A stretch of 64,000 nucleotides of DNA from Candidatus Saccharimonadota bacterium (GCA_037141755.1 JBAXBX010000002.1:28915-92914); one strand, 5' to 3'. Numbered from the stretch's first letter, positions 3,606 through 40,754 are shown. Translations and numbers: made by a program. The notes: generated by a model from the letters alone, not told the origin.

Positions 3606-6509
3606 ATGAAATTTAAATCAGGCACCCGCAGACGAGCATTGGAATACGAGAAAGATTTAGTTGCCCAGTGGAAGCAAAACAAAACTTTTGAAAAATCAGT
3701 CAATCAACGACCAATCGAAAATTCGTATGTTTTTTACGATGGTCCACCATTTATTACTGGTGTACCACATTATGGAACCTTGCTAAGTAGTATTGTCAAA
3801 GACGCCGTGCCAAGGTATCAAACCATGAAAGGCAAACGTGTCGAGCGTCGTTGGGGTTGGGATTGTCATGGACTGCCCGCCGAAAACTTCGTCGAGAAAA
3901 AATTAGGTATAACCAGCCGACATGACATTGGCGAAAAAATTAGTTTAGCTGATTATATTACAACTGCACGCGATAACATGGTTCAAAACAGTGCAACCTG
4001 GGAAGATACAATTGACCGTATTGGTCGTTGGGTTGACTTTAAGGGCGCCTACAAAACCATGGATAAAGATTTTATGGAATCCGTTTGGTGGGCCTTTAAA
4101 GCTTTGTACGAAAAAGGCAAGATTTATGAAGGTGAACGCGTTTTAATGTATGATACCAAGTGGGCGACACCACTGTCGAAGGCTGAAGTTACAATGGATG
4201 CCGGTGCTTATATTGTTGTGACTGACCCGAGTGTTTATGTGAAGTTCAAAATGGCTATTGGAATATGGAATATGGAAGATAGCGAATCTCGTAATAGTCA
4301 TCCAGTTTCGTTGTTGGCTTGGACAACGACGCCTTGGACTTTGCCTGGCAATACGGCGCTGGCGATTAATCCAAAGTTGATTTATGCCGAGGTTGAGTTA
4401 GAAGGCGAGCATTTTATTATCGCCAAGGACTTAGTTGATGCCGTACTGACAAATGAGAAACATGTTGTTTTGGACTACAAAATTATTCGAACGTTCAAGG
4501 GTTCAAAATTAATAGGTTTGACCTACGAACCACTATTTGGTGACCGTGGCGACAATGCACACAAAATTTGGGCAGCTGATTATGTAACAACCGAATCAGG
4601 TACGGGTATTGTTCATATTGCGCCAGCTTATGGTGAAGAAGACTTTGCTTTGGCTAAAGAAAACAATATTCCCGTGGTTCATGTCTTGGACGAATACGGT
4701 AAATATATCGAAACTGAATGGTTAGGCAGTGATGTTTGGGAAATTAACAAAACTATTGCCAAAACTTTACACGAACGTGGCGTTGTTTGGAAAATTGATT
4801 ACATTCGTCACGAGTATCCACACAACCCACGCACTGGTAATCGTTTGATGTATCGGGCACATCCAAGTTGGTTTATGGATATCGATGGTCAACGAACTGA
4901 AATGTTAGCTGAAAACACTGAACACATAAATTGGTTTCCGGACCACATAAAACACGGTCGTTTTGAAAAAACTATCGAGACTGCACCAGATTGGAATTTG
5001 TCGCGCGATCGTTTTTGGGCGACAGCAATGCCAGTTTGGAAGGGGATTGATGCTGACGGTAACGAACTTATCAAAGTCATTGGCAGTTACGCCGAGCTTA
5101 AAGAACTTAGCGGCGTTGAGTTGCAGGATTATCACCGCCCATGGGTTGATGACATTAAATTTACGATTGATGGTGTCGAATATACTCGCATCGACAAAGT
5201 TTTGGATGGTTGGTTTGAAAGTGGCAGTATGCCATTTGCACAATTCCATTATCCATTCGAAAATGTTGCCAAATTTGAAGCCAACTTTCCTGGTGACTTT
5301 ATCGTTGAATATGTCGGTCAGGTTAGGGCTTGGTTTTACTACGTGCATGCCGTAAACGTTGGACTGTTTGGTCATAATGCCTTCAAAAACGTTATTGTGA
5401 CCGGAACAATCGCTGGTAATGACGGCCGCAAGATGAGCAAAAGTTATGGTAATTATACCGACACTAATGAATTAATGGATAAATTTAGCGCTGACAGTTT
5501 ACGCTTCTTATTATTGTCCAGCCCGTTACTTAGCGGTGAAGATTTTGCGTTGCAAGACAAAGAAGTCGGTGACGTGGCCCGAAAATTGTCGATGATTTGG
5601 AACATGTACGACTTTTTCACGATGTATGCCGAAGTTGACAGGTGGGAGTTTACGGGTGATTTGTCAGACCCAGTTGAATCGCTAACTAATCCACTGGATA
5701 TTTGGGTTGTCAGTCGTTTACACCAATTAACAGCTGAAGTCGAAAGCAAAATGGATGGTTATGATGTGGCCGGTGCGCTTAAACCTGTACTACCATTTAT
5801 TGAAGACGCCAGCAACTGGTATGTCCGTCGCAGTCGTCGCCGTTTTTGGAAGGCAGGGGATGATACCGACAAAAACAATGCTTACCGAACATTACATTAC
5901 GTACTAGTCCAATTATCGATGATATTAGCACCATTTACGCCATTTTTGGCTGAAGAATTGTATCAAAAACTAATTGGCGGTGAAAGTGTTCACTTGTTGG
6001 ATTGGCCAACGGTTGGACATATTAATGAGTTGGTTGTTACCGAAATGGAAACGGTTCGTGATTACGTAAATCAAGGCCTTAGCATTCGAGCCCGCGAACA
6101 TCAAAAAGTTCGTCAGCCACTAGCTAGCGTTACAGTCCAGAAAATGGGTGAATTTGTTGATTTTGCCGATATTTTAAGCGAAGAATTAAACGTCAAATCA
6201 GTCTTAACTGGCCCAGAATTTAGTCTTGATTTAACGATTACGCCAGAATTAAAAAGTGAAGGCATTGCCCGCGAAGTTATTCGCCATATTCAAACTGCCC
6301 GCAAAGATGCTGGCCTAAATATCGACGATCGAATTCAACTGGTCTTATTAACAGATGACAATGAACTAAAACAGGCGATTGTTGACCATAAAAAAGTAAT
6401 TGTCGAAGAAGTTTTGGCAACCGAGCTTCACGCCACTGGCGACAAAGATTATACTGCCAAAGTTAAAATTGACGCTGCTGATTTAACCATATCTTTGCAA
6501 AAAGCCTAA
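3606..6509 (+). CDS. ileS: isoleucine--tRNA ligase
   Basis: 967 aa with a class I HIGH-like PHYGTLL, KMSKS, WDCHGLP, and an editing-domain-sized insertion. Confidence 0.95.
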   Translation: MKFKSGTRRRALEYEKDLVAQWKQNKTFEKSVNQRPIENSYVFYDGPPFITGVPHYGTLLSSIVKDAVPRYQTMKGKRVERRWGWDCHGLPAENFVEKKLGITSRHDIGEKISLADYITTARDNMVQNSATWEDTIDRIGRWVDFKGAYKTMDKDFMESVWWAFKALYEKGKIYEGERVLMYDTKWATPLSKAEVTMDAGAYIVVTDPSVYVKFKMAIGIWNMEDSESRNSHPVSLLAWTTTPWTLPGNTALAINPKLIYAEVELEGEHFIIAKDLVDAVLTNEKHVVLDYKIIRTFKGSKLIGLTYEPLFGDRGDNAHKIWAADYVTTESGTGIVHIAPAYGEEDFALAKENNIPVVHVLDEYGKYIETEWLGSDVWEINKTIAKTLHERGVVWKIDYIRHEYPHNPRTGNRLMYRAHPSWFMDIDGQRTEMLAENTEHINWFPDHIKHGRFEKTIETAPDWNLSRDRFWATAMPVWKGIDADGNELIKVIGSYAELKELSGVELQDYHRPWVDDIKFTIDGVEYTRIDKVLDGWFESGSMPFAQFHYPFENVAKFEANFPGDFIVEYVGQVRAWFYYVHAVNVGLFGHNAFKNVIVTGTIAGNDGRKMSKSYGNYTDTNELMDKFSADSLRFLLLSSPLLSGEDFALQDKEVGDVARKLSMIWNMYDFFTMYAEVDRWEFTGDLSDPVESLTNPLDIWVVSRLHQLTAEVESKMDGYDVAGALKPVLPFIEDASNWYVRRSRRRFWKAGDDTDKNNAYRTLHYVLVQLSMILAPFTPFLAEELYQKLIGGESVHLLDWPTVGHINELVVTEMETVRDYVNQGLSIRAREHQKVRQPLASVTVQKMGEFVDFADILSEELNVKSVLTGPEFSLDLTITPELKSEGIAREVIRHIQTARKDAGLNIDDRIQLVLLTDDNELKQAIVDHKKVIVEEVLATELHATGDKDYTAKVKIDAADLTISLQKA

Positions 6510-27311: not shown

Positions 27312-27373
27312 ATTGGACTATTGTATCTGTTTTTTGGTGAATTGTCAAAGGGTAAAGTTGTTCGCTTACGGCA

Positions 27374-27488: not shown

Positions 27489-27507
27489 TCCTGGGTTGAA
27501 CCTAGGA
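27489..27507. repeat. imperfect palindrome TCCTGGGTTGAACCTAGGA
   Basis: Seen directly. It shares a GGGTT-S-AACC core with the next palindrome. Confidence 0.7.
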
Positions 27508-27553: not shown

Positions 27554-27580
27554 GTCAATCAGGGTTCAACCCTGATTGAC
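27554..27580. repeat. perfect 13-1-13 palindrome GTCAATCAGGGTT-C-AACCCTGATTGAC
   Basis: Seen directly. It lies in the divergent rpmE / DGR-target intergenic region. Confidence 0.85.
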
Positions 27581-27652: not shown

Positions 27653-27724
27653 AATAAGCATAAGTAATAATTAAGTTTTTTAAATGTATACACATAAGGG
27701 GTTATCCAAAATGAATAAAATATT

Positions 27725-28819
27725 ATGAATAAAATATTCTTAACTTCGAAAAATGAACCTGTCACTCTACCACCTACTACCTACAAACTACCATCTACCA
27801 AACCTGGTTTCACCCATGCTTCGCCAAGGCTACGCAGGATAAAGGTAGCTTCGCCAGCCTTTACAATCGTCGAACTCCTAGTAGTCATCGTAGTCATCGG
27901 TATCCTTGCCGCTATCACAATAGTTAGCTACACTGGTATCTCTCAAAAAGCTATTGTCGCCACCCTCCAATCTGATCTAGGCAATGCTTCAAAAACAATT
28001 AAGCTATATCAAGTCGAACAAGGACAATTTCCAACTTCCTTTGATGCCAACAATTGCCCAGTCCCAGCCAATGCCAGATACTGCCTGAAAGCCAGTTCAG
28101 GTAATACTTTTGACAGGACTGCCTATGCTGCATCTGTCAACAACTCGACTAATCCTCAAACCTTTACATTGGATGTTACTAATACCAATACGACTAAATA
28201 CCGCATTACTAATAATTCAGCACCAATAGCTGTATCTGCCACACCTGAAACACTAGCCGACACAGACCCAGCTAACTGGCTAGCCATAGGAACTCAGGTC
28301 TGGGGCAAATACAACCTTAACGTCGGTACTATGGTTACTGGCGTAACTGCTCAAACTAACAACTTAATCCTAGAAAAATACTGTTCCGCCAACACTGAAT
28401 CAAACTGCACAACCTACGGTGGTCTATACCAATGGGATGAAGCCATGCAATACGTCACAACTAACGGCGCTCAAGGCATCTGTCCAACTGGATCACATAT
28501 TCCATCTGACAACGATTGGAAGGTGTTAGAGGTTCAACTCGGTATGACTCAGGTGCAAGCTGATGCGATTGCTTGGCGCGGTACTAATCAAGGCACTCAA
28601 TTGAAAAATGGCGGAACGTCGGGGTTGAATATGCCGCTTGCCGGCCTCCGCTACACCGACGGGTCCTTCGACACTCTGTCGTCGTTCGCTTACTTGTGGT
28701 CTAGTTCGGAGTCGAGCACTAGTGCTTGGGAACGTACCTTGTACTCGGGTTACGCGACGGTGTACCGTGACACGCTTGGCAAGGCGGGCGGTTTTTCGGT
28801 ACGCTGCCTAGGAAATTGA
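27725..28819 (+). CDS. DGR variable protein: type IV pilin-like N-terminus fused to a FISUMP / C-type-lectin-fold domain
   Basis: Class III signal-like A|FTIVELLVVIVVIGILAAITIVSY. FISUMP-like YGGLYQWDEAM, CPTGSHIPSDNDW and GFSVRCLGN. The last ~62 codons are the VR. Confidence 0.9.
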   Translation: MNKIFLTSKNEPVTLPPTTYKLPSTKPGFTHASPRLRRIKVASPAFTIVELLVVIVVIGILAAITIVSYTGISQKAIVATLQSDLGNASKTIKLYQVEQGQFPTSFDANNCPVPANARYCLKASSGNTFDRTAYAASVNNSTNPQTFTLDVTNTNTTKYRITNNSAPIAVSATPETLADTDPANWLAIGTQVWGKYNLNVGTMVTGVTAQTNNLILEKYCSANTESNCTTYGGLYQWDEAMQYVTTNGAQGICPTGSHIPSDNDWKVLEVQLGMTQVQADAIAWRGTNQGTQLKNGGTSGLNMPLAGLRYTDGSFDTLSSFAYLWSSSESSTSAWERTLYSGYATVYRDTLGKAGGFSVRCLGN

Positions 28820-28821
28820 TT
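28634..28821 (+). repeat. DGR variable repeat (VR)
   Basis: 188-nt ungapped match to 29424-29611. It has 21 mismatches, 20 of them opposite TR adenines. Confidence 0.92.
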
Positions 28822-28935
28822 GTTCGATTTGACTATTTGACCCTTTGACTATTTTTGTACAAAATAAATTAGATTTGGCTGTTAAATATAAAATTTCGTG
28901 ATGGTATGTTTATTAAAATAAGGTGGATAAAAAAT

Positions 28936-29334
28936 ATGACGACATATTACAATTTGCCTGTTTATAAACAAAGTTATGATTTGCTTTTAGAGATATTTAA
29001 ATTGACGAAGGAATTTAATCGGGAATATAAATATACGATTGGTGAAGAACTAAAAAAAGAGACTACTGCAATGATAATCAATATTTATCGAGCTAATAGC
29101 AGCAATAATAAAGTCGATTATATCGTTAGTGCTAGGGAAAATATTGAGGTTATTCGATTATTGATTAGGCTGCTAAAAGATTTAAAACAAATTCAAGTGG
29201 CTAGAATTGCCAGATTAAATTTAGCGATCGAGGAACTGTCGAAACAGTTAACCGGTTGGGGAAATTATTCAAAAATAAATAGTGCTAAAGGGCCAGAACC
29301 ATTCGTTGCCAAGTTGGCGAGTGGGCGCGCCTAA
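28936..29334 (+). CDS. avd: Avd-like accessory protein (four-helix-bundle family)
   Basis: 132 aa. LPVYKQSYDLLLEIFKLTKEF..EYKYTIGEELKKE is typical of the four-helix-bundle / 23S IVS protein family. AGGTGGA RBS. It is positioned between VR and TR. Confidence 0.8.
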   Translation: MTTYYNLPVYKQSYDLLLEIFKLTKEFNREYKYTIGEELKKETTAMIINIYRANSSNNKVDYIVSARENIEVIRLLIRLLKDLKQIQVARIARLNLAIEELSKQLTGWGNYSKINSAKGPEPFVAKLASGRA

Positions 29335-29349
29335 TCAATTTAGTAATCT

Positions 29350-29376
29350 CCTCGCTTAGCGAGCGAGGTCTATAAT
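29350..29376 (+). promoter_or_regulatory. hairpin (CCTCGCT-tagcg-AGCGAGG) followed by TATAAT, a possible TR-RT promoter region
   Basis: Stem at 29350-29356 / 29362-29368 and a -10-like box at 29371-29376, about 48 nt upstream of the TR. Confidence 0.35.
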
Positions 29377-29423
29377 TTACCAAAAGACATTTTCTTTTAG
29401 TAAAGAGGTATATGATTACTGTC

Positions 29424-29611
29424 CCGCTTGCCGGCAACCGCAACACCGACGGGTCCTTCAACAATCTGTCGTCGAACGCTAACTTGTGGTCTAGTTCGGA
29501 GTCGAGCACTAGTGCTTGGGAACGTAACTTGAACTCGGGTAACGCGACGGTGAACCGTAACACGAATGACAAGGCGAACGGCTTTTCGGTACGATGCCTA
29601 GAAAATTGATT
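29424..29611 (+). repeat. DGR template repeat (TR), non-coding
   Basis: The VR homolog carries AAC/AAT wherever the VR codons vary. It ends 14 nt before the RT ATG. The 65-aa ORF called here is an artefact. Confidence 0.92.
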
Positions 29612-29625
29612 AAAAAGTAAAATAT

Positions 29626-30846
29626 ATGACAGAAAAACATATACAAATTACTCACGAATATAGCCTGATTGAGGATATCTTTCAGGCTTATTATGATGCT
29701 CGTAAAAATAAACGAAATTCTAATAGTTCTTTGGGATTTGAACTTGAATATGAGAAAAACTTGGTACAACTCTTCCACGAAATTAATGAACGAAGTTACA
29801 AGCCCAGGCCTTATTCTGCATTTATTATCGAAAAACCAGTCAAAAGAGAAGTTTTTGCAAGTGAGTTTAGGGATAGAGTAGTCCATCATCTGATATTTAA
29901 TTATATTAATCCAATATTCGACCCACTTTTTATAAATGATAGTTACAGTTGTCGCGTAAATAAAGGTACTTCGTATGGTATAAAAAGAGCTGACTATTTT
30001 ATAAAGTCATGTAGCCAAAACTATAAAAAAGACGCCTACATAATGAAATTAGATGTAGAAGGTTATTTTATGTCGATTGATAAAACGATACTTTTTGAAA
30101 TTATTAAAACGCAAATTATTAAACGTCAAGACAAGTTGATTTGTGAGTTAGATTTAATATTATTTTTGGTTGAAAAGGTTATTTTTTGCGACCCAACGAA
30201 AGATTGCATAATTAAAAGTGGGCGAGAGTCGTGGCAAGGGTTGCCAAAATCAAAAAGTCTGTTCTTTTCTGGTAAAAATAAAGGTCTACCGATAGGTAAT
30301 TTGACATCTCAGCTTTTCGCAAATATTTATCTGAATGAAATTGATCAATTCATAAAACGGGAGCTAAAATTTAAATATTACGGACGATATGTGGATGATA
30401 TGATTTTTGTCGATAATGATAAAGAGCGATTAATATGGGCTATTAAAGAAATTAAAAAATATTTAGCGTCCAATTTATCATTAAAGCTTCATCCAAAGAA
30501 AATATATTTGCAGAACTCCAATAAGGGAGTTAATTTTTTAGGCGCATTTATAAAACCATATAGGATTTTAGTCGGGAAAAGAATAAAAAGTAATTTATAT
30601 CGTAAAGTGTATGAAGGACTATATATTTTGAACTATTCGAATGCTAAAATCAGTGATTTTGATAAAAATTTTGAATTTAAACAATTAATTAATTCATATT
30701 TTGGTATATTAAAACAGGCAAATTCTTATACATTCAGAAAAGGAGTCGTAGAATTAATTGTCGATATATCTAGAGGTGATTTTGTGCCAAATGATGATTT
30801 TAGTGTGATAAGTTTATGTAAAAAATATACAGTTTTGAAAGTGTGA
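29626..30846 (+). CDS. DGR-type reverse transcriptase
   Basis: LPIGNLTSQLFANIYL (DGR-type motif 4), catalytic YVDD, and an RVVHHL fingers region. 406 aa. Confidence 0.9.
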   Translation: MTEKHIQITHEYSLIEDIFQAYYDARKNKRNSNSSLGFELEYEKNLVQLFHEINERSYKPRPYSAFIIEKPVKREVFASEFRDRVVHHLIFNYINPIFDPLFINDSYSCRVNKGTSYGIKRADYFIKSCSQNYKKDAYIMKLDVEGYFMSIDKTILFEIIKTQIIKRQDKLICELDLILFLVEKVIFCDPTKDCIIKSGRESWQGLPKSKSLFFSGKNKGLPIGNLTSQLFANIYLNEIDQFIKRELKFKYYGRYVDDMIFVDNDKERLIWAIKEIKKYLASNLSLKLHPKKIYLQNSNKGVNFLGAFIKPYRILVGKRIKSNLYRKVYEGLYILNYSNAKISDFDKNFEFKQLINSYFGILKQANSYTFRKGVVELIVDISRGDFVPNDDFSVISLCKKYTVLKV

Positions 30847-38948: not shown

Positions 38949-38989
38949 GAGCCGCAATAGGCCCTTTGAAAATTTGCTATACTAATAGT

Positions 38990-40754
38990 ATGAAACGATT
39001 TATTTTGGGGCTAATCGCGGTAGTTTTAGTATCGGTACTTAATATAAATCTAACTTATGCTGATACCAGTAATTTTACGATTACTGATTTTCAGGCCGAT
39101 TATTATTTGGATAAAGATTCAAGTGGCCATTCAACTTTAAAGACAGTTGAACAGATCACGGCTGATTTCCCAAACTATGACCAAAATCACGGTATCGAGC
39201 GGGCGATCATCGCTAATTACGACGGTCATACAACTAAACTAAATATCGAATCAGTCACAGACCAAAATGACAGCGAATTAAACTATTCAACCTATTGGAA
39301 TAATTCAAACTTAATCTTGCGCATTGGTGATAGCGATACTTATGTTCATGGTTTAAAAACATATGTAATTAAATATTCACAAACTGATGTGACGCGGTAT
39401 TTTGCCGATACTAATGACGATGAATTTTATTGGGACGTTAATGGCACTGGATGGAGTCAAAAATTTTATAGTGTTACAGCTAGATTACATCTAGGGGCAG
39501 GAATTACTGGGCAGGTGACAGATAGCAATGCATGTTATTATGGCCAATTTAGTTCAAACAGCAAATGTGACATTATAAAATCTGGCGATGTAATTACGGC
39601 TAATGTGACAGACCTCGGTGTTGGTGAAAACATGACGATTATATCTGGGTTCAAGCCTCATACTTTTGCTGATTATAAAATGACATTGTCCGATTTTTTG
39701 GCGATGTACTCGTTTATAATATCTGGTGCTGTCGGACTAATATTGTTGATTGTTTTAATTGTCTTAAAATTAACTCTTGGCCTTGGTGCTAAGGGGCGGG
39801 GCACGATAATTGCTGAATATTTGCCACCCAAAGGCGTCGATGTTGCGCTGTCGTCAGTTATTGAGGGCAAAGAGGCTACGTGGGTCGTCTGCGATATATA
39901 TTGATTTGGCGGTGCGACGTAACTTAAAAGTTATTCAAGCTGAAAAAAAATTATTCAATAAAGTTGGTTATAGTTTGGAATATATTAATTCTGATGGGTT
40001 GGATGATACCGAAAAAGCGATTGTCGCAGCGCTATTTGGCGATAATCCAGTTAGTGGAGCTAGATATGAAATTGATCCGAATAAATTTAACTATGAAACT
40101 TCAAAATCATTAAAAAAGTGCTACAAGGATGTTAAGTTGTTTTCCAAACAAAACGGCTATTATATTAGTGATAAAAAATTGCAAAAATTGATGATAACTC
40201 TGGTTGTAATAACAGCTTTGCAGGCGATGATTATGTGGTTGGCTTCAATGTCGTCGGAACTTGGTTTTTTGAATATTGTAACTGGGTTATTCTTTACATT
40301 AATGGGAATATTAGTAGTCGCTTCAATCAAACCGCTGTCTATAAAAGGCCGTGAATTGCATGATTATTTAAAAGGTTTGCAGGTGTATATTAAATGCGCT
40401 GAGGCTGATCGTATTAAGATACTGCAAAGTCCGATGGGCGCTGAAAAAACACCAGTCAATACTAATGACACTGATATGATGATTCATTTATACGAAAGGG
40501 TATTGCCCTATGCAGTGTTGTTTGGAATTGAAAAAGAATGGACTAAAGTGCTGGGTGAATATTACGAACAGCAGAATGTGACCCCTGGTTGGTATGTTGG
40601 CAATAATGCCTTTAATATGGCGGCCTTTAGCTCGTCGATGTCTAGCTTTTCGGGTAGCGTATCCAGTAGCAGCTATAGTTCGTCCAGTGGCGGCTCGGGT
40701 GGCGGTGGATTTTCGGGTGGCGGTGGTGGCGGCGGAGGCGGCGGCGGCTGGTAG
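38990..40754 (+). pseudogene. DUF2207 family membrane protein interrupted by a +1 frameshift
   Basis: ORFs 38966-39904 and 39810-40754 overlap in different frames. The family motif SSAIYIDLAVRR is read only in the second frame. There is a C-terminal Gly-rich tail. Removing one G near 39882-39884 restores a single ORF. Confidence 0.7.

Follow-up and report, generated by a model that had tools for sequence, protein, structure and literature searches.

Components of the locus and adenine-specific variation

We analyzed a 64,000-nucleotide stretch of DNA from a Candidatus Saccharimonadota bacterium (GCA_037141755.1 JBAXBX010000002.1:28915-92914), referred to here as the window, in which an earlier note made from the sequence alone had placed a complete diversity-generating retroelement (DGR) with four co-oriented parts. 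The open reading frames (ORFs) and the repeat were recovered in the order target, avd, template repeat (TR) and reverse transcriptase (RT), all on the + strand. The target ORF (27725-28819) encodes a 364-aa protein with a prepilin-type leader, a type IV pilin-like helix and head, and a C-terminal FISUMP/lectin-like domain that holds the variable repeat (VR). It is followed by avd (28936-29334), whose product has 132 aa when counted from the second ATG (28906 is the start in the ORF list), by the TR (29424-29611) and by the RT gene (29626-30846), which encodes 406 aa.

A repeat finder reported one long direct repeat in the region, with copies at 28634-28821 and 29424-29611 (188 nt, 89% identical, offset 790). 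The base-by-base comparison of VR and TR gave 21 mismatches, 20 of which were at TR adenines (A>T 9, A>G 6 and A>C 5), the sole non-adenine mismatch being a TR-C to VR-T change. With 48 adenines in 188 nt, the hypergeometric P-value of this bias was 7e-13. The last variable codon of the VR was codon 355, and the three 3'-most mismatches fell in a 33-nt segment without variable codons (28789-28821 in the VR and 29579-29611 in the TR, + strand). Since these three, including the non-adenine one, lie beyond the last variable codon, the mutagenic part of the VR (28634-28788, + strand, codons 304-355) had 18 mismatches to the TR and all 18 were at TR adenines. Two of the changes in the 3' segment were synonymous (TR 29582 C>T and TR 29594 A>C), and the third (TR 29602 A>G) converted Glu to Gly363. 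The G in the Gly363 codon was common to the VRs of the window and of a related cassette (L003), and five out of six aligned TRs had A at this site; the single TR with G was that of L002, which is eroded. Gly363 was found in 87 of the 102 members of an alignment of the target with 101 homologues. By analogy with Bordetella phage BPP-1, the 33-nt segment is a putative initiation of mutagenic homing site in the VR (IMH), and its TR copy a putative IMH*, a difference that would give directionality.

The claims that the VR forms the last ~62 codons of the target and that the VR/TR mismatches are adenine-specific therefore stood, and the VR was found to lie inside the FISUMP domain at the extreme C-terminus. 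The length given for the TR was also right, while its description as non-coding needs correcting: the TR has an open frame of 65 codons because it copies coding sequence, and it is called a gene in some assemblies. A scan of both strands of the window that tolerated any base opposite TR adenines detected no further VR. When read in the VR frame, the TR contained 11 AAC and 3 AAT codons; its adenines were at codon position 1 in 22 cases, at position 2 in 20 and at position 3 in 6, so that positions 1 and 2 together held 42 of the 48. The mutagenic part had 40 adenines spread over up to 25 codons, corresponding to ~1e24 DNA variants and ~1e23 protein variants. Only one of its codons, the AAG of Lys353, can mutate to a stop; Lys occurred at this position in 92 of the 102 aligned proteins. 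The column entropy of the same alignment was 2.85 bits at codons with A at positions 1 and 2 (AAC or AAT in the TR) as compared to 0.84 bits at codons in which neither of these positions is A (P = 1e-6), and the mean outside the VR was 1.11. The hypervariable columns matched the AAC and AAT codons of the TR. The TR was 85-91% identical to the TRs of related cassettes with its adenines conserved, and the VR/TR mismatches in three relatives occurred at adenines in 16 of 16 (L003), 12 of 12 (L056) and 15 of 15 (L061) cases.

The Avd protein matched the Pfam family bAvd (PF22296) with 56.2 bits (cutoff 40) and the PHROG family 'Avd protein of DGR' with an E-value of 1.2e-19; the NCBIfam model NF033474 (DivGenRetAVD) gave 53.9 bits, which is under its equivalog cutoff of 80. 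These matches bear out the assignment of a 132-aa Avd-like gene, of which the conserved core is only ~115 aa. The Avd proteins of relatives were 84-94% identical to it and were 115-116 aa long as compared to 132 aa in the window. The extra ~17 codons of the window avd (29281-29334) run into a conserved structured RNA element upstream of the TR, so the stop codon has probably been lost or shifted and the added length is probably not functional.

The RT contained the DGR-type motif LPIGNLTSQLFANIYL and an intact catalytic YVDD, as described earlier. DGR RTs carry [I/V/L]GxxxSQ in place of QGxxxSP (PMC7826257), and the signature was present in the window RT as IGNLTSQ at aa 223-229. The first residue of this motif in the RT (bRT) of Bordetella phage BPP-1, Ile181, promotes adenine mutagenesis together with Arg74 (PMC7826257), and Arg74 of the window RT aligned with Arg74 of bRT. 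The best match among solved structures was 8ub7 (E-value 2.4e-34), which is Brt of BPP-1, the prototype DGR RT. The E-values against the group II intron protein LtrA (4.7e-11) and against retron-type RTs (~2e-10) were poorer by 23 orders of magnitude. In PHROGs, the RT fell into phrog_1423 'Reverse transcriptase' with an E-value of 3.8e-91.

The TR is flanked by conserved RNA on both sides. Directly 5' of it, a structured element (29290-29423, + strand) has three hairpins and an invariant 7-bp closing helix (AGUAAUC/GAUUACU). RNAalifold on 10 cassettes predicted 36 pairs in this element, 15 of which had compensatory changes, and 95.8% of the cells were paired. None of 500 shuffles reached the observed value and slid controls gave at most 4 compensatory pairs. 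These ~135 nt hold long invariant blocks; they match no Rfam family, and no family reached threshold anywhere in the 64 kb. On the 3' side, the post-TR segment (29612-29715, + strand) comprises a 14-nt gap and the first ~30 codons of the RT, with an invariant hairpin at 29662-29688 (AGCCUGA...UCAGGCU). The synonymous difference at RT codons 1-30 was 0.239 as compared to 0.435 elsewhere (Mann-Whitney P = 7e-6; second lowest of 323 blocks), and the minimum of synonymous divergence sat over the hairpin. No covariation was detected in this segment (covariation term +1.13), so that an RNA role is suggested by the constraint on synonymous sites. Because the RT start follows the TR after only 14 nt, any equivalent of the spacer RNA of BPP-1 would have to lie inside the RT ORF, and the post-TR segment is the candidate for it. 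In BPP-1, RNA on both sides of the TR envelops the bRT-Avd complex, and stem-loops just 3' of the TR and a duplex between the upstream and downstream regions have been predicted in 207 of 278 Avd-containing DGRs, including those of candidate phyla radiation (CPR) bacteria (bioRxiv 10.1101/2023.10.23.563531). The layout in the window fits this general scheme, with a putative equivalence of the individual elements.

The cassette resembles that of BPP-1 (mtd-avd-TR-brt) in the order of its parts, in the adenine-specific differences between TR and VR, in a VR that closes the C-terminus of a domain which here is a candidate for ligand binding, in its four-helix-bundle Avd, in the IGxxxSQ, YxDD and Arg74 of the RT, and in the conserved RNA on both sides of the TR. 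It differs in being cellular and not phage-borne, in the length of the TR and VR (188 nt vs 134 nt in BPP-1), in the 14-nt distance from the TR to the RT start, in having its largest conserved structure upstream of the TR, and in a target that is pilin-like and not the tip of a tail fibre. One further difference counts against a canonical element: no GC-rich hairpin or cruciform like that of BPP-1 was found after the VR. Folding of 28790-28905 was no better than that of shuffled sequences (z = 0.28), and the VR end is overlapped only by a weak AT-rich hairpin of 7 bp. On balance, we place at about 90% the probability that the locus is a complete, canonical DGR in the chromosome of a Candidatus Saccharibacteria bacterium that rewrites the C-terminal lectin-like domain of a pilin-like target.

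A promoter-like site (TTGACC-17-CAAAAT; 28837-28865, + strand) scored 9 out of 12 in a consensus scan. It lies between the target gene and avd, where it overlaps the block TATTTGACCCTTTGAC shared with L003, and is a weak candidate for the start of an avd-TR-RT transcript. We also noted a 22-nt inverted repeat (82% complementary) between 28832-28853, in the TTGACCCTTTGAC block of the same gap, and 27340-27361, which is the promoter-like TTGACA region of rpmE (- strand). This repeat may reflect only two similar promoters.

The pilin-like target and its variable head

The leader peptide of the target (27725-27859, + strand, aa 1-45) ends in SPA before Phe+1. It is not conserved in relatives, and no other in-frame ATG, GTG or TTG occurs before the prepilin motif. 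Residues 43-52 read SPA/FTIVELL and are followed by a hydrophobic stretch, the wider context being RLRRIKVASPA/FTIVELLVVIVVIGILAAI, where the slash marks the predicted cut. The mature N-terminus FTIVELLVVIVVIGILAAITIVSY, with Phe+1 and Glu+5, opens a long alpha-1 helix (27860-28021, + strand). The TIGR02532 prepilin N-terminal domain matched the target with 20.6 bits (cutoff 16.3), and the pilin and pseudopilin equivalogs GspG, PpdD, PilA and ComGC matched its N-terminal 60-100 residues under their cutoffs. Among solved pilins and pseudopilins the target matched geopilin (1.7e-8) as well as GspG, PilA and PilE. A profile of the target family matched solved pilins with an E-value of 3.8e-16, and its alignments to PilA, PilA5 and PilE1 (6xxd, 8pfb) extended over up to 110-120 residues. 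A full-length AlphaFold2 (AF2) model of the target had a mean predicted local distance difference test score (pLDDT) of 88.8. In this model residues 1-45 were disordered (pLDDT <50), residues 48-99 formed a 52-residue helix that was followed by a small beta head (strands 148-170), and residues 185-364 formed the C-terminal domain.

The C-terminal domain matched Pfam Fib_succ_major (PF09603, FISUMP) at aa 187-362 with an E-value of 1.8e-31. Presumably, PF09603 is a member of the Pfam C_Lectin clan. An AF2 model of the domain alone (pLDDT 93.3) matched phage FISUMP proteins in BFVD with an E-value of 7e-10, and when it was compared with the PDB by Foldseek the top ranks were almost all C-type-lectin-like domains, none of them significant (best E-value 0.088). 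A profile search of PDB sequences revealed no solved FISUMP domain and found only pilins. A survey of freshwater and wastewater metagenome-assembled genomes (MAGs) lists 43 DGR targets in which FISUMP holds the VR (PMC11661182). To judge from its sequence, the target resembles a type IV pilus subunit that has a class III signal and bears a sugar-binding-type head. The earlier note had described the diversified product as a surface protein and as a candidate for host or ligand recognition. The prepilin-type signal and the pilin helix, features that it had not seen, support the surface location and make the host-recognition idea more specific.

We found the same target type in relatives of the cassette. 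Proteins identical to the target and the RT are present in NCBI as Candidatus Saccharibacteria MAG proteins, in line with the CPR-type organism proposed earlier, and the 192-kb contig carrying them has the same gene order. The source samples are represented by assembly ERZ27299975 and by run SRR12676967, in which the identical RT occurs. An RT-based scan of species-representative genomes yielded 34 loci, five of which had RTs 74-81% identical to that of the window and came from Saccharibacteria or Patescibacteria MAGs. Exact-protein look-ups added more members of the clade, and scanning for a 20-mer that is invariant in the pre-TR RNA gave 13 loci. The target N-terminus was visible in 11 independent members (the window, L003/L042, L006, L040 with two targets, L047, L048, L049, L050, L052, L060 and L062), and all of these encoded [G/A]FTIVEL and FISUMP, followed by Avd, TR and RT. 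The more distant RT relatives (~50% identity) had mostly other target architectures.

Several observations weigh against a diversified pilin with a lectin-like head. With 45 aa the leader is longer than is typical, and it ends in Ala at -1, where Gly is usual. The target of L052 also has Ala at -1, and Ala at this position is tolerated according to mutagenesis of Pseudomonas aeruginosa PilA. Pfam N_methyl scored 18.9 bits on the target, just under its cutoff of 21.2. Neither the full-length nor the domain-only AF2 model matched a structure in the PDB at E < 0.001, with lectin-like domains at the top of the ranking. No pilus assembly genes and no prepilin peptidase were found among the ORFs annotated in the 64-kb window. 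Moreover, some pilin-FISUMP homologues had no DGR within 4.5 kb, and so the fold is not always diversified.

These observations raise the question whether the target is a pilus subunit at all, or whether the prepilin-type signal serves only for export and anchoring, with the variable head on the cell surface and not on a filament. The top family-level matches included type II secretion pseudopilins (GspG 1.4e-10, and GspH) besides pilins, all under curated cutoffs. The mature protein is large (319 aa) with its atypical leader and Ala at -1, and the target gene is an orphan, since there are no pilus genes nearby and no second prepilin motif was detected in the 64 kb. On the other hand, an N-terminal helix of 50 residues followed by a beta head is the architecture of type IV pilins, and pilins with C-terminal adhesive modules are established elsewhere, as in S. 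sanguinis PilB (PMC8179133). Type IV pili are near-universal in Saccharibacteria, where minor pilins have lectin-like C-terminal domains (PMC11623550). We therefore consider an export-only role for the signal unlikely, albeit a serious alternative, and favor a pilus subunit.

Two features upstream of the prepilin motif were noted separately. The start of the target gene (27696-27738) contains ATGAATAAAATATT twice in tandem, a duplication of 14 nt. One copy has a good Shine-Dalgarno sequence (AAGGGG, 27696-27701) and opens a five-codon ORF (MNKIL), the TGA stop of which overlaps the target ATG (ATGA). This overlap may make translation of the target dependent on coupling to the short ORF; alternatively, the duplication may have lowered target expression. 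Only two copies of the sequence GGGTT[G/C]AACC were present in the 64 kb, both of them between genes and upstream of the target (27493-27502 and 27555-27579), and the second copy was the centre of a near-perfect 25-nt palindrome, TCAATCAGGGTTCAACCCTGATTGA. The palindrome may be an operator-like site; it was absent from the ten related cassette loci checked.

Diversification in the clade and probable relocation of the cassette

The clade provided direct evidence of diversification in nature. For a sister element with an RT (P0129) 79% identical to that of the window, contigs from different samples had identical TR, avd and RT. Comparison of L046 with L042 revealed 20 differences in 2403 positions, and all 20 were inside the VR and at TR adenines. 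Since these contigs differ solely in the VR at TR adenines, we conclude that cassettes of the window's clade diversify in nature.

The window copy itself could be silent or a recent fossil, a real DGR whose VR was written once and is now frozen. Exact-protein look-ups of its target and RT returned no VR variant, the 90% cluster of the target had one member, and an exact scan of JGI metagenomes with a 36-nt anchor gave no match; all three results count against current activity. The four contigs examined with an identical target protein carried the same VR, since the look-up used the identical target protein, and the only other contig with the exact RT was a 1.4-kb fragment (L037) that starts inside the TR and has no VR. 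The available contigs probably come from very few samples, which makes the absence of variants weak evidence. Cassettes of this clade do die, as indicated by the decay of L002/L040, in which the TR is adenine-depleted, mismatches are not confined to adenines and an insert of ~170 nt separates TR and RT. In the window, by contrast, all the ORFs are intact, including the YVDD and IGNLTSQ of the RT, and so is the flanking RNA structure. The TR keeps its 48 adenines at positions conserved in relatives, the mismatches of the mutagenic part are purely at adenines with no drift at other bases, and the VR of the sister element turns over between samples. A frozen window copy accordingly seems to us rather improbable, and we retain the view that the cassette is probably functional.

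The decayed sister DGR was seen in L002:586-947 and L040:5392-8950, which belong to one lineage with an RT gene ~81% identical to that of the window at the nucleotide level. Its TR had 31 adenines as compared to 45-49 in other TRs, and it was changed at 15 of the 43 columns at which the other TRs agree on A vs 8 of the 125 other columns. It also had the VR-type G in TAG[G]AAATTG, and the ~170-nt insert was self-complementary. The mismatches to the two upstream pilin-FISUMP genes were distributed over A (7), G (5), C (4) and T (3), with additional indels. On sequence grounds this looks like a template that was mutagenised after a change from IMH* to IMH, or like general decay; an assembly chimera is also possible.

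Assemblies of related loci were disturbed at the repeats. In L006 (HGW-Saccharibacteria-1, ~5083-5108) a run of N lay exactly over the VR (PLAGXXXXXXXXXGFSVRCLGN), L037, a Logan contig, breaks inside the TR, and several contigs of the sister element begin within the target gene. Such breaks are consistent with either VR heterogeneity or collapse of the TR/VR repeat.

The window cassette has rpmE on one side and rpsB on the other. The upstream genes on the - strand are prmC, prfA and rpmE (type B L31), and rpsB, tsf, frr, uppS and rseP follow downstream; the other ORFs annotated in the 64 kb are of the housekeeping kind (ftsZ, tRNA synthetases, secA, a Mur ligase, prfB and a polysaccharide cluster). 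This confirms that the element sits among core translation genes, with rpmE upstream and rpsB downstream. We also noted that DUF2207 and DUF2207_C of one membrane-protein family fall on overlapping ORFs in different frames (38966-39904 and 39810-40754), which suggests a frameshift, a pseudogene or a sequencing error.

The neighbours of the cassette were different in every relative. The pairs found on its two sides were typA and rarA-ddl; GmrSD and nusA-clpB; rpsO-pnp and UDG-RNase J-ftsK; a restriction-methylase and a TraG-like gene; toxin-antitoxin-S24 and Fic-type IV secretion system (T4SS) genes; and a resolvase and a relaxase (L040). In a further relative Bro-N-UDG-RNase J lay on the downstream side. 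Cassettes are homologous at the nucleotide level from precisely the Phe+1 codon with which the mature pilin begins (27859/27860) to a point 20-45 nt before the RT stop. No shared insertion site, terminal repeats or att-like flanks were found, and the leaders, promoters and flanks were unrelated between cassettes. From these comparisons the cassette appears to behave as a relocatable unit. The housekeeping genes on both sides support the description of the window element as resident and chromosomal rather than phage-borne. Since the neighbours differ in every relative, 'resident' can only mean chromosomal and does not extend to a stable position. Two cassettes had conspicuous surroundings: that of L050 (L050:1-11254) adjoins TrbC/TrbL/PrgI/TraC-like genes and has a second RT gene fragment at the 5' end, and that of L006 (L006:7220-9985) adjoins a TraG/VirD4-like coupling protein. 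Both also adjoin toxin-antitoxin or Fic genes. These are hints that some copies ride on integrative conjugative elements (ICEs).

It is very unlikely that the window cassette is itself part of a mobile element such as a prophage, an ICE or another island. Such an origin would agree with the changing neighbours, among them the conjugation, T4SS or toxin-antitoxin genes of L006 and L050 and the resolvase and relaxase of L040, and with the base composition of avd (33% GC) and the RT gene (29% GC), which are AT-richer than the window (39%). In a phage collection, 117 records matched the RT at 35-43% identity, and the nearest annotated ones were phage DGR RTs. Against this, the cassette is set directly between rpmE and rpsB, and no phage, integrase or conjugation genes were found among the ORFs annotated across the 64 kb. 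The cassettes share neither terminal repeats nor att-like flanks, their homology breaking off at the mature-pilin codon and close to the RT stop, and a single-protein scan of IMG/VR, which reaches close relatives only, found no relatives. We thus continue to regard the window copy as a chromosomal DGR.

The possibility that the RT belongs to a group II intron, a retron or a defence system, and that the repeat is an unrelated duplication, was effectively refuted and was rejected. In NCBIfam the RT scores highest against a model of group II intron RTs/maturases (107 bits) and databases label its relatives 'retron-type' or 'group II intron RT', but NCBIfam has no DGR RT model, TIGR04416 (group II RT/maturase) scored 107.4 bits against a cutoff of 300, the retron St85 model 60.6 against 235, and Drt2/3a/4/5 and AbiA were far under their cutoffs; PADLOC returned a generic RT model as top match with no system partner, Rfam detected no group II intron or retron RNA at threshold in the window, Brt was far closer, and an Avd gene with an adenine-specific repeat has no place in any of these systems.

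Proposed mechanism and comparison with known systems

The mechanism proposed here follows from homology with BPP-1; the activity of the window copy, the details of priming and homing, incorporation into a pilus and the ligand are inferred. The avd-TR-RT region would be transcribed, and the RNA segments that flank the TR (29290-29423 on one side, the initial ~90 nt of the RT ORF on the other) would fold around the RT-Avd complex. The RT would copy the TR into cDNA with random bases inserted opposite adenines only, and the cDNA would replace the VR, the 33-nt 3' segment (IMH) marking the end of the target. In this way up to 25 codons in the C-terminal lectin-like FISUMP domain could be re-randomised. 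The target would be made as a prepilin from which a prepilin peptidase probably removes the leader, cutting after Ala45, and it would be anchored in the membrane by its FTIVELL helix. Most likely, it would then become a minor pilin of modular build, exposed at the tip of a type IV pilus, and display the variable lectin-like head for binding of host-cell or other surface ligands. Extended to the relatives, this would describe a Saccharibacteria DGR sub-clade dedicated to a modular type IV pilin with a continually rewritten, tip-exposed head, carried as a unit (mature pilin-avd-structured RNA-TR-RT) that moves from site to site and from genome to genome and has an unusual DGR RNA layout outside Rfam, with ~135 nt of covariation-supported structure upstream of the TR and a spacer-like element inside the RT ORF; we put this wider view forward tentatively, at somewhat less than even odds.

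DGRs are enriched in CPR bacteria (Roux et al. 2021, PMC8144416). The window element resembles the cellular DGRs of CPR/Patescibacteria ('clade 2', PMC8144416) in host phylum, cellular location, a compact cassette with Avd, and a C-terminal VR; its relatives are for the most part Saccharibacteria and Patescibacteria MAGs. According to Roux et al. (2021, PMC8144416), neither a transmembrane domain nor any other conserved domain can typically be recognised in the targets of CPR clade-2 DGRs, whereas those of the window's sub-clade have a recognisable prepilin/type IV pilin N-terminus. The DGRs of Bacteroides type V pili are similar in being cellular, in fusing a variable lectin-fold head to a pilin module, and in having cassettes that move between genomes, some there on ICEs. 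They belong to another phylum and to an unrelated pilus system, in which the pilins use lipoprotein export and strand exchange, unlike the window target with its class III signal and type IV pilin helix. Moreover, display and activity have been shown experimentally for the Bacteroides systems, whereas the window element is known from its sequence.

In the order of a pilin module and a large C-terminal adhesive or lectin-like module, the target is like the modular type IV pilins PilB and PilC of Streptococcus sanguinis and PilX1 and PilX2 of Nanosynbacter lyticus TM7x. Those modules are static and have other folds (vWA, beta-jelly-roll and beta-propeller), and the papers on them describe no DGR. 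The lectin-like minor pilins of Saccharibacteria contribute to host binding, and a DGR is not mentioned in that study (PMC11623550). The target shares its VR-holding domain with the FISUMP (PF09603/TIGR02145) DGR targets of the MAG survey, which lists a 'G-type pilin' domain separately as scarcely represented among VR hosts (PMC11661182). The survey leaves FISUMP and the G-type pilin unconnected, suggests a signal-peptide role for the domain and offers no pilus-adhesin reading. In the literature library that was searched, no paper combined 'diversity-generating retroelements' with 'prepilin'. The window DGR is mechanistically textbook and adds nothing new to DGR biology; its pilin-type target is the under-described aspect.

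The three genes are currently labelled 'FISUMP domain protein', unnamed (Avd) and 'RNA-directed DNA polymerase'. Descriptions of CPR DGR targets have reported no domains from which localisation or function could be recognised, and what gets diversified stayed vague. In cultivated Saccharibacteria, type IV pili mediate host attachment. If our reading is true, it would provide an answer on the localisation of CPR DGR targets and give type IV pili an equivalent of the type V pilus DGRs of Bacteroides, in the form of a programmable pilus adhesin that would let an obligate epibiont retune its recognition of hosts or ligands. That hypervariable pilus adhesins tune the specificity between epibiont and host is a testable hypothesis, and a DGR-varied pilin head may be how these tiny epibionts vary what they stick to.

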